A DNA stretch of 4,236 bases from Escherichia coli (GTDB lineage: Bacteria; Pseudomonadota; Gammaproteobacteria; Enterobacterales; Enterobacteriaceae). Below, in pieces: positions 1 through 4,236 of this stretch. The notes beneath the pieces are model-generated. The model ran no database searches. It worked only from the letters and a program-made list of their open reading frames with translations, and had not been told where the DNA came from. Made by a program: the position numbers and the translations under genes. The stretch lies in assembly GCF_024298765.1 (NCBI RefSeq), contig NZ_CP101215.1, one strand, 5' to 3'. The first letter of the stretch is position 1. Each line of letters starts with the position of its first letter.

Positions 1-29
1 CGAACGGGTCAAAACGGCAAACTTTCTCA

Positions 30-76
30 TCCAGAAAACGCCTCACGGGACGCGGAATTTTTTCGTGTCCCGTGAG
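30..76 (-). terminator. Putative rho-independent terminator downstream of mobA
   Basis: Seen in sequence: imperfect inverted repeat 42-54 (ctcacgggacgcg) and 64-76 (cgtgtcccgtgag), 12 of 13 pairing, with a 9-nt loop. On the minus strand it is followed by GCGTTTTCTGG (about 30-41). It lies about 35 nt past the mobA stop codon (110-112). A second small hairpin, cgggg-tgcag-ccccg at 91-105, sits directly after the stop. The U-tract is short and interrupted, so the call is tentative. Confidence 0.35.
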
Positions 77-109
77 ACGTTGGCGGGGTTCGGGGTGCAG
101 CCCCGGATA

Positions 110-2329
110 TCACATACTCATGCCCCGGTAATGTCCGGGGCGTCGTTGTTGTTGCCTGTGCTGTTCGTCCCGCTTCCATTCATGCCAGGTCTGATTAAAT
201 CCGAGTTGACGGAAGAGATAATCCGGCATCTCTTCCGGTTTGTTGATGGCAGCAAAAAGCGTGTCCTGACAGCCCTTAAGCCTGAACTGCATCAGCTTCG
301 GTTCCGGTGGGTACGGAGTATCAGCATCACGGTTTATGGCCTCACCGTAACCTGCCAGGTGTATCCCGTTCTCTGTGATGATGCTTACCATCAGATGACT
401 GTAATCCGGCGACGGAAGCGCAAGAACGGGACGCAGCTCGTCCTCCAGGCGCACAAAACCGACAAGCATTTCCTCCGGCCCTTCGCACAACAGCAGATTC
501 AGCGTCCTGCTGTTTCGCTCTGTCGAAAAGACAACGGGCATGAGTTGCTCCGGTGCCGCATAAGCGGTGACGTCCACCCGGTGCGCTGACGGCAGCGGAG
601 AGGCTGCGGGCCTGCGGTCGTCGCTGAAATAAAAATTATCCGGCCAGTGATGCGGCAGCGCCGGAAAACCGTAAGAGGGCCACCCCTGGCGCATCTGTTC
701 CAGTACATGCCGGACCGTCGCACCGGAATACATTCTCACACGCTCAGGCCGCGCCATCGTCTCATGAGATTCTGGCATTCCCTCACGTATATCCGAGACC
801 ATCACAGCCCCGCCTGGCGACAGGTAAACATTCACCGGGTCATGAACACTCTGGGGGTAATGCGCCAGCTCATCACCCCATACCGTGAATTCTCCGGCTC
901 TGTTACTCAGCATCATGTAGCGGGTTATCCTGCCCGTTCCCGGCTCTCTGGCACGCCCCAGCTCCGTAATAACCCCGGCTAATGCCGTTTCTCGGCTCAG
1001 GCGATGGTTATCATGGTGTTTCAGCCGTGCGTCATATTCCTGTTCCTTCCGGCGCGCTTCCGCTTCGGCTTCCTCCCTGCGCCGCTCCGCTTCCCGTGCT
1101 GACAGTTTTTCTTTCAGCTCTGCCATTCCCGGCGAAATCCACGTATTCCACTGCGTTTCAAAGGCCTGACGACGGACGGGAATGTCCCGTTCTTTCACGG
1201 CCCTGTAGGTGCGGAGAAGAGATTCAATCTGTTTCTCGAGTTTCCAGAAGCGGAGTTGTCTTTTGCGGTATTCCGGTTCAGCCCATGTCATCAGGGGAAG
1301 CTCTGACAGGATGGACGCTACCGGACGGGCTTTTCTGAGTCCGGTCATCTCTTTTTCGAGAATATCCCGCTCTTTCACCAGCGCATTCCCCTCACGTTTG
1401 ATGTCGTTTGCCTTCCCGTTCATCGCCACGAACTCCGGTGTCATCTCCCATGCGTTCCCGCATTCCTGCGGCAGTGTGGCAATGAATTCCCGCAGGGTAT
1501 CCGCTGAGGCATTCGCGGCGGGAATGGTCAGATTAAGGGCTTCCGCTGCACGACGTGCGGCATCGCTGAGTTCCCGTTTCCGCACGTTCTCCTGTACCTG
1601 GATGACTGCCAGCCTTGTGCGGGAAACCTGTATTTCCAGGTTAAGGCTGTTAATCAGGCGGTTCTGCTCACCGCGTTCTGTTTCCATGCCCCGTTTTTCC
1701 ATCGCACAGGCAGCCTTTCCGAGGTGAAGGCCCGGCGCTTTCTCCAGTCCCTGACGCTCGTATGAACGATGGTCTATCTCTTCCTGGTAGCCGGCGTTCG
1801 CAAGCGCTCTGTTCGCATGGTCAGCCCATGATGCGCGCCACGTCTCGGCGAGTGCCCGGTCGTTCCAGTCCCTGACCTTTCCTGCGAATCCCGTTTCCCC
1901 GACAGCTCTCGTGGTCAGCATGATGTGTGCATGGGGGTTGGTCCGGTCCATATGATGGAACGCCACATCGGCAATCATGCCCCGACTGACAAAGTTTTCC
2001 CGGACAAAAGCGAGAACGGCCTCCCGTGCGGCCTCGCGGGAAATCTCACGGGGAATGGCGAGTTCAATCTCCCTTGCCAGCTGGGAGTTCCGGCGCTGTT
2101 CGGCTTTCTCGACCGCATTCCAGAGAACGGAACGGTCACCACACCAGGACGGTGCATTCGCAGGGGTGAGAATGACCGCATCATCAACGCCGCGTTTACG
2201 GGTGTAATCGTGGATTAATCCGGTACGGTCATCGGGTATGACAGAGCCGGAACGGTAGGCAGCAGAAGCAACGGCACTGTAGCCGTTTTTTCGCGAAATG
2301 ATTTTCATGCTGAGATGATAAATCGCCAT
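110..2329 (-). CDS. mobA: MobA/MobL-family (MOBQ-type) conjugative relaxase with a long C-terminal extension of unknown function, about 739 aa
   Basis: A continuous 768-codon minus-strand ORF (110..2416) in the supplied track. I place the start at the internal Met (ATG at 2329-2327) because the protein then begins MAIYHLSMKIISRKNGYSAVASAAYRSGS, the conserved N-terminus of MobA/MobL relaxases (compare RSF1010 MobA, MAIYHL...), with the catalytic Tyr region near the N-terminus and a 3-His metal motif HHMDRTNPHAHIML. A WADHANRAL motif and a charged, coiled-coil-like middle section (REAERRREEAEAEARRKEQEYD) follow. The C-terminal roughly 260 residues (about 110..890) have no motif I can assign. 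Stop TGA at 110-112. Established knowledge: the MobA_MobL family signature. Inference: start codon choice. Confidence 0.9.
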   Translation of the reverse strand: MAIYHLSMKIISRKNGYSAVASAAYRSGSVIPDDRTGLIHDYTRKRGVDDAVILTPANAPSWCGDRSVLWNAVEKAEQRRNSQLAREIELAIPREISREAAREAVLAFVRENFVSRGMIADVAFHHMDRTNPHAHIMLTTRAVGETGFAGKVRDWNDRALAETWRASWADHANRALANAGYQEEIDHRSYERQGLEKAPGLHLGKAACAMEKRGMETERGEQNRLINSLNLEIQVSRTRLAVIQVQENVRKRELSDAARRAAEALNLTIPAANASADTLREFIATLPQECGNAWEMTPEFVAMNGKANDIKREGNALVKERDILEKEMTGLRKARPVASILSELPLMTWAEPEYRKRQLRFWKLEKQIESLLRTYRAVKERDIPVRRQAFETQWNTWISPGMAELKEKLSAREAERRREEAEAEARRKEQEYDARLKHHDNHRLSRETALAGVITELGRAREPGTGRITRYMMLSNRAGEFTVWGDELAHYPQSVHDPVNVYLSPGGAVMVSDIREGMPESHETMARPERVRMYSGATVRHVLEQMRQGWPSYGFPALPHHWPDNFYFSDDRRPAASPLPSAHRVDVTAYAAPEQLMPVVFSTERNSRTLNLLLCEGPEEMLVGFVRLEDELRPVLALPSPDYSHLMVSIITENGIHLAGYGEAINRDADTPYPPEPKLMQFRLKGCQDTLFAAINKPEEMPDYLFRQLGFNQTWHEWKRDEQHRQQQRRPGHYRGMSM

Positions 2330-2377
2330 TTCTGCCGTAATGCCTTTTTGCCGTTTTCTTTCAGCCCCGCAGGGCGC

Positions 2378-2425
2378 ACACAATCGAAACGAAGTGAAGA
2401 TTGTATAAGTGCGCACTTCGTGATA
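2378..2425. other. Candidate origin of transfer (oriT) with MOBQ-type nick motif, overlapping the divergent mobA/mobC promoter region
   Basis: Seen in sequence: inverted repeat ACAATC (2380-2385) and GATTGT (2399-2404) with a 13-bp spacer, followed one base later by TAAGTGCG|CAC (2406-2416). This matches the RSF1010/R1162 oriT nick core GTAAGTGCG|CCCT, which I recall from memory. A second inverted repeat, acgaagtg (2389-2396) and cacttcgt (2414-2421), brackets the putative nick. The position between divergent mobA and mobC is the canonical MOBQ arrangement. The strand and exact nick position (predicted between 2413 and 2414) are inferred. Confidence 0.55.
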
Positions 2426-2449
2426 TGCCGTGCATTATGCCAGCTCAGT

Positions 2450-2477
2450 TTTTAAACTACCAGTGACGAGCTAAAAT
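2450..2477 (+). promoter_or_regulatory. Putative mobC promoter (-35 TTTAAA, -10 TAAAAT)
   Basis: Seen in sequence: TAAAAT at 2472-2477 with TTTAAA at 2450-2455 (16-bp spacer), about 30 nt upstream of the mobC ATG at 2508; AGGAG Shine-Dalgarno at 2495-2499. By-eye hexamer match only. Confidence 0.25.
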
Positions 2478-2507
2478 GCGATTTTTCACCGCGCAAGGAG
2501 TCACGAA

Positions 2508-2783
2508 ATGAGCAGAACACTCGAACAGAAGATTGCTGAAGCTGAGGCCAGATTGCAGCGCCTGAAGGCGAAGAGCCGGAGCCTGGACACTGCGCAAAAA
2601 GTCATTGTGGGAGCAGCCATGCTGGCGAGGGTACGGAGGCCGGAAGAGGCGCAACTGCGTGCGTTCCTGCTCCAGTTCCTGCGAAAGGAAGTCACAAGAC
2701 AGGCCGATGTGAACCGGCTACAACCACTGATTAACGAGCTGGAGAAGCTACCAAGACCACCTGCGAAACCGCAGAACGGATAA
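2508..2783 (+). CDS. mobC: MobC-family relaxosome accessory protein (91 aa)
   Basis: ORF 2508..2783 with a good RBS (AGGAG 2495-2499). The protein is small and basic, and it contains QKVIVGAAMLARV, which resembles the conserved RKVLVGAMILAKV segment of RSF1010-type MobC (recalled from memory). It is divergent from mobA with the oriT-like sequence in between, as in MOBQ systems. Confidence 0.8.
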   Translation: MSRTLEQKIAEAEARLQRLKAKSRSLDTAQKVIVGAAMLARVRRPEEAQLRAFLLQFLRKEVTRQADVNRLQPLINELEKLPRPPAKPQNG

Positions 2784-2952
2784 GCCCCGGCGCGTAAGTG
2801 CCACATGCACCACCGGACGCCTTTGCGCTTCCTCGCACATTCGCTCGCTACGCTCGGTCATGAGGCTGCGGCGAGCGCTACCACCGCAATCACGAGGAAA
2901 CCAGCGCCATTGCTGGGCGGAACCGGAAAAACCGCAGGAACGCCAACAGCTC

Positions 2953-2974
2953 AAAAAAGCGCCGAAAAGGCGCT
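2953..2974 (-). terminator. Putative rep terminator hairpin (short stem plus T6 on the minus strand)
   Basis: Seen in sequence: plus 2958-2974 forms a-gcgcc-gaaaa-ggcgc-t, a 5 to 6 bp GC stem with a 5-nt loop. On the minus strand it is followed by TTTTTTGAG (plus 2951-2958). It lies 15-35 nt downstream of the rep stop codon (2989-2991). The stem is short, and the element overlaps the presumed origin. Confidence 0.35.
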
Positions 2975-2995
2975 GTTATCTGATAAGGCTATTTG
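2953..2995 (-). other. ColE2-type origin of replication (Rep-primed ori) immediately 3' of rep
   Basis: The minus strand reads CAAATAGCCTTATCAGATAACAGCGCCTTTTCGGCGCTTTTTTGAGC, starting in the last codons of rep. From memory, the ColE2-P9 minimal origin contains AGATAAGCCTTATCAGATAACAGCGCC just downstream of rep; the exact base-by-base match is not verified here. Placement directly after the rep stop fits the known ColE2 architecture. Confidence 0.6.
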
Positions 2996-3897
2996 TGCAT
3001 TGCCCAATTACGGATCGTATTTCGATGTACATCCAGCATCGCCGCAATAGCTTTCTGAGAATATCCATTCTCCAGCATACATAGCGCCATGAAACGCTTG
3101 TCCTCGTAGGCTTCGCCTTTAGCAAGGCCACCTTTCCGGCCTCGAGCGGCCTGTACAGCGGAAAAGCCTTCCGGTGAGAATTTTCTGTGCGTGTATTTCG
3201 CAATGCTCTTGCCAATAGCCCGGCATTCAGCCAGTGAAAGAGGAACGGGAAGCGATGCGTTGTACATTTCGACACGCTGGATCACGGCATCAAGCCACTG
3301 TGAGAATGCTGGCCATCCCTGACGAATCGCTCTGTAAGCCCATTTGCGCGTCATTTCGAACAGGTGGCAGTTTCGCCCCATCCCGTAATGTTTATCGATG
3401 CTACGACGCTCTGAGGCGCTCAAATCGAGATAATCTGCCAGTTCATCGAGGGTATAGGCTTCCTCGCGCCACTCCATCACCTGCCATTCCAGGTGGAACG
3501 GATTTTTGCAAATCAGTCCGCTGTAGTTCACATCAGCACAAAGTTTCTCACACAGCGAACGTTCAATCGCGGCAGCATATTTCAGCGCCTTAACCGACGC
3601 ATCAGGCGCGGTTCTCACGGCGATATTGAGTGCATAGAGCAGGTGAGCGTGTCCGTTCACAGGATTTTTAACGGTGATGTTCGGCGCGGGGGCGTTCCGG
3701 TCGCTCCAGTCAATCGCTGCCCCCTCGCGGTCAACGTCAAAAACCAGCCAGAACTGCGCATGAGGCTGGTTCTGCTGGATGTACCGCGCAAGAAGCGCAC
3801 GCCCTTTGCCGGAGATGCGAAGGCCGAAAGCGAGATCATCCGTGTGATAGGGACGGTGGGGTAAATTTTCTTCGAAGTATTGAAGCGCGGCGCTCAT
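2989..3897 (-). CDS. rep: ColE2-family plasmid replication initiator / plasmid-specific primase Rep (302 aa)
   Basis: ORF 2989..3897 (-). RBS GGAAGGAA about 10 nt upstream of the ATG at 3897-3895; stop TAG at 2989-2991. The protein has long stretches I recognise from ColE2-P9/ColE3 Rep: YIQQNQPHA, DWSDRNAPAPNITVKNPVNGHAHLLYAL, VRTAPDAS, YAAAIERSLCEKLCADVNYSGLICKNP, YTLDELADYLDLSA, LFEMTRKWAYRAIRQGWPAFSQWLDAVIQRVEMYNASLPVPLS, ECRAIGKSIAKYTHRKFSPEGFSAVQAARGRKGG. The C-terminal tail (…ENGYSQKAIAAMLDVHRNTIRNWAMHK) looks like a helix-turn-helix, consistent with origin binding. Confidence 0.92.
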   Translation of the reverse strand: MSAALQYFEENLPHRPYHTDDLAFGLRISGKGRALLARYIQQNQPHAQFWLVFDVDREGAAIDWSDRNAPAPNITVKNPVNGHAHLLYALNIAVRTAPDASVKALKYAAAIERSLCEKLCADVNYSGLICKNPFHLEWQVMEWREEAYTLDELADYLDLSASERRSIDKHYGMGRNCHLFEMTRKWAYRAIRQGWPAFSQWLDAVIQRVEMYNASLPVPLSLAECRAIGKSIAKYTHRKFSPEGFSAVQAARGRKGGLAKGEAYEDKRFMALCMLENGYSQKAIAAMLDVHRNTIRNWAMHK

Positions 3898-3996
3898 GTG
3901 TTACGATTCCTTCCAGGTTATCGACCGACATCGCCCCTGTATTTTCGTGACAGTCTTGCCGGATAGGCACGAATTTCAGGGGCGTTTGTTTTTTCT
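3880..3996 (+). ncRNA. Putative antisense RNA (ColE2 RNA I-like) complementary to the rep mRNA leader and start region
   Basis: Established knowledge: ColE2-type replicons control Rep translation with an antisense RNA of about 115 nt (RNA I) complementary to the rep 5' leader. Seen in sequence: a strong plus-strand terminator (stem 3932-3939 with 3977-3984, then TTTGTTTTTTCT) ends at 3996 inside the rep leader. The 5' end is inferred from the expected length; no convincing promoter was identified by eye. Confidence 0.35.
3932..3996 (+). terminator. Rho-independent terminator (hairpin plus T-run) on the plus strand within the rep leader region
   Basis: Seen in sequence: CGCCCCTG (3932-3939) pairs with CAGGGGCG (3977-3984), a perfect 8-bp GC-rich stem around a 37-nt loop that may fold further. 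It is followed immediately by TTTGTTTTTTCT (3985-3996). Confidence 0.5.
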
Positions 3997-4054
3997 GGCG
4001 CTTACCCTACACCCAAACGCCAAACCCTGTCGATCCTTCCCCAAAACCCGATCC

Positions 4055-4082
4055 ATTTACCATAACTCCCGTTGTACGTACC
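4055..4082 (-). other. Xer (XerC/XerD) site-specific recombination core site, cer/psi-like with 6-bp spacer
   Basis: The minus strand reads GGTACGTACAA-CGGGAG-TTATGGTAAAT. Compared with the ColE1 cer core as I recall it (GGTGCGTACAA-TTAAGGGA-TTATGGTAAAT), the XerD arm is identical and the XerC arm differs at one position. The central region is 6 bp, as in dif and psi, rather than the 8 bp of cer. Confidence 0.6.
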
Positions 4083-4236
4083 CTCTAAAACGCTCTCAGA
4101 CGCGTTCTGACGCAAAAAACGCAAAAAGACAAGGAAACACCAGGCTGAACCAGAAAAATGCGTCAGAATCGTTTTTAGGGCGCTGCATAACTATGCACGA
4201 AAGCGATGCGCGATCGGTTTCGACCGTTCAGAAGCG
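4083..4236 (-). promoter_or_regulatory. Putative Xer accessory sequences (cer-like), including an ARG-box-like palindrome; truncated by the window edge
   Basis: Established knowledge: cer-type sites need about 180 bp of accessory sequence on the XerC-arm side, with an ArgR box about 100 bp from the core. Seen in sequence: palindrome TGCATAACTATGCA at 4184-4197, about 105 bp from the XerC arm, matching TGnAT-N4-ATnCA of the ARG-box consensus at 8 of 10 core positions. Also a 10-bp inverted repeat, TTCTGACGCA (4105-4114) and TGCGTCAGAA (4159-4168), flanking an A-rich stretch. Confidence 0.4.

Follow-up and report, generated by a model that had tools for sequence, protein, structure and literature searches.

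This ColE2-type plasmid carries, just upstream of its rep gene, what is in all likelihood a standard cer-family ArgR/PepA-dependent XerCD multimer-resolution site of the type that belongs to ColE2-related (Col156/MOBQ42) plasmids. The site is about 210 bp in extent and, read on the minus strand, covers positions 4055-4236 and 1-28 of the window, i.e. the whole 4,236-bp stretch of DNA analysed here. The identification relies on core arms that agree with those of cer at 21 of 22 positions and are identical to those of ColE9-J, on the alignment of the accessory region, on the spacing of the ARG box, on the presence of a single copy and on wide conservation. Judged from these sequence features, the site is very probably functional. 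The first-pass annotation had proposed a cer-like Xer multimer-resolution site, and the arms, the spacer, the cer/mwr-homologous accessory region and the distance of the ARG box from the core all fit that proposal. In practical terms, this cryptic 4.2-kb plasmid would rely on the host proteins XerCD, ArgR and PepA to stay monomeric, and small enterobacterial plasmids normally have such a 28-bp Xer site together with accessory sequences.

The window is a complete circular plasmid (Col156, MOBQ4) that was opened at an arbitrary point. It differs from pEF5-18-41_6 (NZ_CP063498.1, 4,237 bp, E. coli; Col156 replicon, MOBQ relaxase) at two substituted bases and by an additional A in that record, and from NZ_JBYMBY010000008.1 (a 4236-bp plasmid of strain E423) by 2 mismatches. 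In both circular records, window base 4236 joins base 1. In the circle, the accessory region extends past 4236 into 1..28; the earlier statement that this region runs off the edge thus holds for the linear window but not for the plasmid. In minus-strand order, the plasmid consists of mobA (2329..110; Pfam MobA_MobL), a hairpin (about 75..41), the Xer site, the rep leader, a ColE2-type rep gene (3897..2989, with its ATG at 3897; Pfam Replicase PF03090 and PriCT_1 PF08708) and an origin-like segment that is common to the window and ColE9-J. The Rep domains together with MobA_MobL confirm the plasmid family, which corresponds to the MOBQ42/ColE2-like plasmids described previously (PMC6856555). 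The location of the cer-like site just upstream of rep matches that in ColE9-J (NC_011977, core 5413-5440), which we used as the prototype of the ColE2 family and in which the site has the same position and orientation relative to a ColE2-type rep; this arrangement is kept in 5 ColE2-type plasmids. ColE9-J is reportedly present at about 10 copies per chromosome.

When the cer arms separated by a 6-nt gap were used as a query, the window gave a single match, at 4055-4082 on the minus strand with 1 mismatch, and 0 of 200 dinucleotide shuffles gave any. The core (28 bp, 4082..4055) reads GGTACGTACAA CGGGAG TTATGGTAAAT and is composed of the XerC-binding arm GGTACGTACAA (4072..4082, minus), the central strand-exchange region CGGGAG (6 bp, 4066..4071, minus) and the XerD-binding arm TTATGGTAAAT (4055..4065, minus). 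In the circularised window, no second XerD-arm-like or core-like sequence was found, and the site is therefore present once per plasmid unit. To compare this core with known ones, the reference sites were taken from sequence records: cer (ColE1 NC_001371, 3909-3938) has GGTGCGTACAA as XerC arm, TTAAGGGA as central region and TTATGGTAAAT as XerD arm; parB (CloDF13) has GGTACCGATAA, GGGATG and TTATGGTAAAT; mwr (pJHCMW1) has GGTGCACGCAA, CAGATG and TTATGGTAAAT; psi (pSC101) has GGTGCGCGCAA, GATCCA and TTATGTTAAAC; and dif (MG1655, NC_000913.3 1590750-1590777) has GGTGCGCATAA, TGTATA and TTATGTTAAAT. The comparison of the arms with cer in the first-pass annotation agrees with the actual sequences in the alignment to cer, psi, dif and the ColE2-family sites. 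Specifically, the XerD arm is identical to that of cer (11/11) and the XerC arm matches at 10 of 11 positions, the one change being G4 to A; the spacer was also correctly given as 6 bp as compared with 8 bp in cer.

This 6-bp spacer, which had been contrasted with the 8 bp of cer, does not set the site apart from its family: ColE2-type sites normally have it, and it also occurs in mwr, parB, psi and dif. Among the ColE2-type relatives, the core of ColE9-J (GGTACGTACAA CAGGAG TTATGGTAAAT) differs from that of the window by one base in the central region, pACN001-D has CAGGAA between the same arms GGTACGTACAA and TTATGGTAAAT, and CGGGAG is found in pJJ1886_2 (XerC arm GGGGCGTACAA, XerD arm TTATGGTAAAT), in pBS512_5 (GGGGCGCACAA and TTATGGTAAAT) and in an IncF plasmid, the core of which is exactly that of the window. 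Moreover, plasmid Xer sites are defined with central regions of 6-8 bp (PMC2699498, PMC11724359), and sites of 28, 29 and 30 bp are all able to recombine in the accessory-dependent mode (PMC11724359). The XerD arm TTATGGTAAAT is unchanged in 12 of the 14 sites compared, the exceptions being pSO21 and psi with TTATGTTAAA(T/C), while the XerC arm varies.

The sequences next to the XerC arm align over their full length to cer, mwr and cer-like ColE1-type sites. They comprise a proximal part of 154 bp (4083..4236, minus), which we take as the inferred ArgR/PepA-binding region, and a distal part of 28 bp (1..28, minus) that is contiguous with it across the circular junction. Most of the sampled blastn matches start at query base 14, i.e. 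at window position 28, giving a total accessory length of ~182 bp on the XerC side. All Xer sites of small plasmids are accompanied by accessory sequences (PMC11724359), which are roughly 180-200 bp long (PMC2699498, PMC11724359). In the accessory region alone, identity to the window is 0.63 for mwr, 0.57 for cer, 0.55 for parB and 0.52 for psi, to be read against a shuffle baseline of about 0.50 (sd 0.017, maximum about 0.54-0.555). Identity to cer and mwr is 4-8 sd above the shuffles and psi lies within their range; this order groups the window site with the ArgR-type sites cer and mwr rather than with psi. In a multiple alignment, the window, cer, mwr and the ColE1-type cer-like sites have in common the blocks GAAAAC, AAACCGATCGC, the ARG box, CTGAAAACG, CTGACGCATTTTT, CTTTTTGCG and GCGTTTTA, followed by the core, and CTTTTTGCG and GCGTTTTA are conserved throughout the family.

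The ARG-box-like palindrome TGCATAACTATGCA/TGCATAGTTATGCA (TGCATA-NN-TATGCA) at 4184-4197 is a putative ArgR site. It is unique in the window, was found in 0 of 200 shuffles and agrees at 12 of 14 positions with the ARG-box region of cer, TGCATAGGTATTCA. The distance to the core, previously estimated at about 105 bp, proved to be 101 bp from the edge of the box to the XerC arm and 108.5 bp from its centre, the latter distance being 106.5 bp for cer and 107.5 bp for each of two ColE1-like sites; from the box centre to the XerD arm, the distance is 125.5 bp in both ColE1 cer and the window. Six ColE2-type sites have the box and the 108.5-bp spacing without any change. Direct reading of the interval from the ARG box to the core reveals a run of T/A tracts, CATTTTTC, GTGTTTCC, CTTTTTGCGTTTTTTGCG and GCGTTTTAG (4086..4160, minus), and a role in DNA bending has been ascribed to T/A tracts in cer (PMC2831885). 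PepA has no recognisable motif (PMC11724359).

Thus, the window site has the arms and a spacer within the 6-8-bp range with a better-kept XerD arm, ~182 bp of accessory sequence and an ARG box ~100 bp from the core that characterize cer-type sites. Its closest known counterpart is ColE9-J, in which accessory region and core are 88% identical to those of the window with the same ARG box and spacing, and the backbones are 94-99% identical; ColE9-J differs in that a colicin operon, missing from the window plasmid, separates mobA from the accessory sequences. The likeness to ColE1 cer extends over both arms and ~180 bp of accessory sequence with an ARG box on the XerC side. However, ColE1 cer has an accessory identity to the window of only ~57% as well as an Rcd hairpin, the sequence GGGTGGTTTGTTGCC and a TAAAAT -10 hexamer, and it is the 8-bp central region, the stable Rcd stem-loop and the 15-nt Rcd motif that set the window site apart from ColE1 cer sensu stricto. 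Like the window site, mwr has a 6-bp central region and a cer-type XerD arm, and its accessory identity is the highest among the classic sites; it differs by keeping an Rcd-type hairpin and motif and by an ARG box that begins with CGCAT, while both halves of the window box have TGCAT. mwr is ArgR/PepA-dependent, and its ARG box has been described as “less than ideal” (PMC2699498). With parB, the window site has the 6-bp central region and the XerD arm in common, whereas the two XerC arms differ, the accessory sequences are weakly similar and parB keeps an Rcd-type hairpin. psi and dif resemble the window site in the length of the core (28 bp) and of its central region (6 bp) but have an XerD arm of the form TTATGTTAAA(C/T). 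We considered and rejected both as the type to which the window site belongs: psi uses ArcA/PepA, its accessory sequence is not detectably similar to that of the window and its core differs, while dif has no accessory sequences, is FtsK-dependent and is located on a chromosome or very large replicon (PMC11724359), and the window site, which belongs to a plasmid of 4.2 kb, has its complete accessory region.

The pattern of conservation also bears on the idea of a relic, i.e. a former cer-like site that has become inactive and is carried along with the replicon. In agreement with such decay, the XerC arm varies among the relatives (GGTACGTACAA, GGGGCGTACAA and GGGGCGCACAA) and the Rcd features described below have degenerated. 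However, the XerC arm is normally the less conserved half of a Xer site (PMC11724359), no change is seen in the XerD arm, in the ARG box and its distance from the core or in several accessory blocks while overall identity drops to 70-80%, and the site is maintained in close to two thousand plasmids. We therefore regard a relic as extremely unlikely.

In our preferred reading of the site as a cer-type resolution site, the features of the sequence were observed here, while the steps of protein binding and recombination are drawn from the cer/mwr paradigm (PMC5357621, PMC2699498, PMC11724359 and a 2026 psi preprint). By this analogy, host ArgR would bind at the ARG box 4184-4197 and PepA on both sides of it. 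The two accessory regions of 182 bp, which are direct repeats in a plasmid dimer, would wrap around ArgR and PepA and, in doing so, trap a fixed topology. The 28-bp cores would be aligned, and XerC at 4082..4072 would carry out the first strand exchange to generate a Holliday junction. As an end result, recombination would convert the dimer into two monomers and preserve the number of segregating plasmid units. In this scheme, XerC would bind the arm with the G4-to-A change, ArgR would bind a box with two TGCAT-type halves and PepA would bind as well. The 6-bp spacer does not predict how the second exchange occurs because XerD completes the exchange at psi (6 bp), while at mwr, likewise with 6 bp, the reaction goes no further than the Holliday junction, as it does at cer. 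The second step may, therefore, be performed by XerD or by other cell functions that act on the junction, and the sequence does not decide between these.

Recombination between rather than within plasmids could also be what the site is for, i.e. it could mainly be a junction at which modules are swapped and plasmids fused by intermolecular Xer exchange with dimer resolution being secondary. Several observations point in this direction. Similarity between ColE2-type and ColE1-type plasmids spans the accessory region and halts at the XerD arm; the site lies between a cargo slot, which holds the colicin operon in ColE9-J but not in the window, and the replicon; the same module is present on about 400 conjugative plasmids and, in the one examined (IncF), is adjacent to a truncated rep leader; and hybrid cer sites and XerCD-made co-integrates have been discussed (PMC7315355). 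However, accessory-dependent sites by design favour intramolecular resolution (PMC11724359, PMC2699498), and a simple exchange would need neither a conserved ARG box nor a conserved spacing. Occasional exchange between plasmids through Xer is expected to leave behind similarity that ends at the XerD arm. Rare intermolecular events at a resolution site should also give mosaic boundaries at the core as a by-product, and such boundaries do not argue for another primary function. Altogether, we consider it very improbable that exchange between plasmids is the main function, and multimer resolution remains our preferred interpretation.

In ColE1, cer is accompanied by the checkpoint RNA Rcd, a 70-nt RNA transcribed from Pcer, the hexamers of which are 15 bp apart, and containing a stem-loop and a conserved 15-nt motif (PMC5935869); its transcription runs from the ArgR side toward the XerCD side (PMC2831885). 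In the ColE1 record, the DNA that separates the ARG box from the XerC arm folds into a long hairpin (-37 kcal/mol, z -4.6), contains the candidate Rcd motif GGGTGGTTTGTTGCC and is preceded by the hexamer pair TTGCAT-15-TAAAAT. The equivalent stretches of parB (-44.7 kcal/mol, z -4.5) and mwr (-41.9 kcal/mol, z -4.5) fold alike, and the motif is found at 15/15 in cer and mwr and at 13/15 in parB, the latter corresponding to the published 86.7% (PMC5935869). From these features, we infer that Rcd in ColE1 is encoded in this interval and, therefore, outside the core. In the window, this stretch (4165..4083) has no stable fold beyond that of shuffles (-18.3 kcal/mol, z -0.23), and the same is true for ColE9-J and pJJ1886_2. 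The Rcd motif in the window matches at best at 10/15, and this only out of alignment register, while 7/15 positions agree by eye in the aligned register. At the position of Pcer, the window has GTGCAT-15-TAAAAA, and the -10 hexamer in the relatives is TGAAAA.

At the base position of the cer Rcd hairpin, the window retains a perfect 10-bp inverted repeat (TTCTGACGCA/TGCGTCAGAA; proximal arm 4105..4114, distal arm 4159..4168) with one compensatory stem column in which A-U is changed to G-C in 3 relatives; this stem alone does not give significant folding. Consensus folding of ten sites returned just a short conserved stem with a covariation term of -0.13, which is too weak for a claim of a structured RNA. 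In a search of the window against Rfam, nothing matched in the Xer site, and a PK-repBA match on the rep leader hairpin was below threshold (28.8 bits as compared with a gathering score of 45). Because Rfam gave no match for ColE1 cer either, it has no Rcd model and its silence on the window is uninformative. The ColE2-type sites form a branch of cer-like sites without the Rcd hairpin and motif that are common to cer, parB and mwr. Given that the elements of the Rcd checkpoint are degenerate, some functions of ColE1 cer may be missing from the window site, and one may ask whether a dimer checkpoint exists at all in plasmids of this branch.

The site adjoins the rep promoter region, as the first-pass annotation had pointed out: the -35 hexamer of the putative rep promoter begins 21 bp beyond the XerD arm. 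This putative promoter, TCGACA-N18-TAGGGT (4004..4033, minus; TCGACA 4033..4028, TAGGGT 4009..4004), lies outside the site itself, is the best hexamer pair downstream of the core and is kept in ColE2-type relatives as TCGACA-N17-TAGTGT; it is below the threshold of the consensus scan. Scans for promoters and terminators over 3850-4236 (both strands for promoters) and 1-200 revealed no promoter-like site in or near the Xer site. Another pair of hexamers, CTGAGA-17-TACAAC, lies partly over the XerC arm, and TACAAC lacks the final T of a -10 hexamer. It had also been speculated that an Rcd-like promoter in the core could read toward rep. This speculation is not supported, although some transcription remains conceivable: the Rcd elements are outside the core in ColE1, the Rcd-equivalent region in the window has a z-score of only -0.2, the candidate -10 lacks its key T and the scan was negative.

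A related but broader idea is that the site is primarily a regulator of replication, either because XerCD/ArgR/PepA would assemble 21 bp upstream of the rep -35 or because a Pcer-like promoter over the XerC arm would read into the rep leader. The XerD arm is at a fixed position beside the conserved TCGACA in all five ColE2-type replicons compared, the pair CTGAGA-17-TACAAC overlaps the XerC arm, and there is a precedent in the EcoRI promoter PR of pMB1, the -35 of which is inside the central region of cer (PMC7315355). However, in addition to the incomplete -10, the unstable fold and the negative consensus promoter scan of both strands of 3850-4236, mutations in Xer or cer of pMB1 had little effect on the output of PR (PMC7315355), and the ColE2-like plasmids pHW66 and pUB6060 have no XerCD site at all (PMC2831885), i.e. 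such a site is unnecessary for the control of rep. Consequently, we find a primary role in replication control very improbable. We speculate, with little expectation that this will turn out to be the case, that Rcd was lost in the ColE2-type plasmids and that their cer-like site became wired to replication instead. Its XerD arm is a constant 21 bp away from the putative rep -35 on the upstream side, and the XerCD/ArgR/PepA complex of dimers could therefore, on assembling or isomerising, alter rep transcription or free a weak promoter that overlaps the XerC arm. If so, the multimer state would be coupled to initiation frequency, and protein/DNA architecture would substitute for the Rcd checkpoint.

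Sites of this type are widespread. Using the 223-bp site as a blastn query against PLSDB, we found it in 1,916 plasmids, including 1,529 from Escherichia, 199 from Salmonella, 83 from Klebsiella and 81 from Shigella. Among complete E. coli genomes, about one in seven (741/5,426) has the site; 855 of the locations are plasmid-borne and 2 are chromosomal. The primary description of cer-like sites in the ColE2 family is said to be that of Hiraga et al. 1994; that study aside, we found no report in the accessible literature of a direct test of Xer-dependence at a ColE2-type site, and a search of papers for the sequence strings returned only unrelated primer matches. The presence of a cer-like site in ColE2-like/MOBQ42 plasmids has been described (PMC6856555), and ColE2-like plasmids frequently have a resolution system of the XerCD type (PMC2831885). 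Moreover, the exact 28-bp core GGTACGTACAACGGGAGTTATGGTAAAT is included in the supplementary list of xrs sites of a 2025 survey, where it is tagged ‘ArgR’ for pRS218 and stands beside variants found here (PMC11724359). The site is, thus, already known, is neither new nor surprising and adds nothing new biologically. In the public records of the window plasmid and its relatives, the site is unannotated under the match, and flagging it therefore improves their annotation.

The window (1-4236, joined at 4236/1) represents an entire circular plasmid, and its backbone shares 94-99% identity with that of the colicin plasmid ColE9-J (NC_011977), the prototype of the ColE2 family. By contrast, the colicin E9 operon of ~3.4 kb is present in ColE9-J and absent from the window; in ColE9-J, this operon is flanked by the end of mobA on one side and by the accessory region of the cer-like site on the other. 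The two plasmids also differ in the C-terminal part of rep, where window positions 2963-3177 (minus strand) gave no megablast match to ColE9-J, while the flanks on both sides are 94-95% identical. This segment may be the region that determines Rep/origin specificity in ColE2-related plasmids.

The cer-like site is also present on large conjugative plasmids, and about 420 conjugative plasmids in PLSDB carry it. For instance, the 181-kb conjugative IncF plasmid NZ_CP024856.1 contains, at positions 4001-4400, the same Xer core and accessory region as the window. The rep promoter and leader are also retained beside the Xer site and, beyond these elements, the similarity ends. That the similarity stops after the rep leader identifies this segment as a ColE2-type remnant. 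In pF11-5 (NZ_CP184148.1; 8,013 bp), rep, mobQ and the Xer site are each present twice, in tandem and in the same orientation. Thus, pF11-5 is a near head-to-tail dimer of the window plasmid, and this arrangement either reflects a genuine multimer or arose as an artefact of long-read assembly.

Among other cer-type sites, the accessory regions closest to that of the ColE2-type site are those of the ColE1-type plasmids pDEC4E-2, pSO21 and pRHB39-C22_5, with 65-69% identity and with spacers of 6 or 8 bp. Folding of the Rcd region, i.e. the stretch between the ARG box and the XerC arm that probably encodes the RNA hairpin in ColE1 cer, is intermediate in these three plasmids (z -2.2 to -3.2), suggesting that the Rcd hairpin was lost by degrees across cer-like lineages. 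pJHCMW1 contains, separate from its Xer site mwr at 3315-3342, a second 28-bp sequence at 458-485 (CCGGCGGACAA CGGATG TTATGGTAAAT), whose XerD arm is a perfect match to the cer type.

In the window, mobA is an intact ORF of 739 aa. The near-identical public record of pEF5-18-41_6 (NZ_CP063498.1) has one A more than the window at ~1225 inside mobA (AA to AAA), which would cause a frameshift in mobA. This extra base is probably the reason that the annotation of this record shows no more than a "hypothetical protein" of 1,089 bp. The interval that separates the mobA stop codon from the outer end of the accessory region contains a stem-loop (41-75, minus strand), with a perfect stem of 10 bp (CTCACGGGAC / GTCCCGTGAG), a loop of 15 nt and the sequence GCGTTTT directly after it. 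This stem-loop may be the mobA terminator; it was not called in the terminator scan because its loop is long. Opposite mobA, within the region 2330-2783, a divergent ORF of 91 aa (2508-2783, plus strand) has no Pfam match and, by position, corresponds to mobC of MOBQ4 plasmids (PMC6856555), with oriT expected in the gap at 2330-2507 (PMC6856555).

Finally, the rep leader contains a 13-bp imperfect inverted repeat (3932-3984) that matches the Rfam family PK-repBA below threshold (28.8 bits vs a gathering score of 45). The repeat is followed by a T-run on the plus strand (3986-3995), and together these two elements resemble the antisense RNAI of ColE2-type plasmids, with its stem-loop and terminator.
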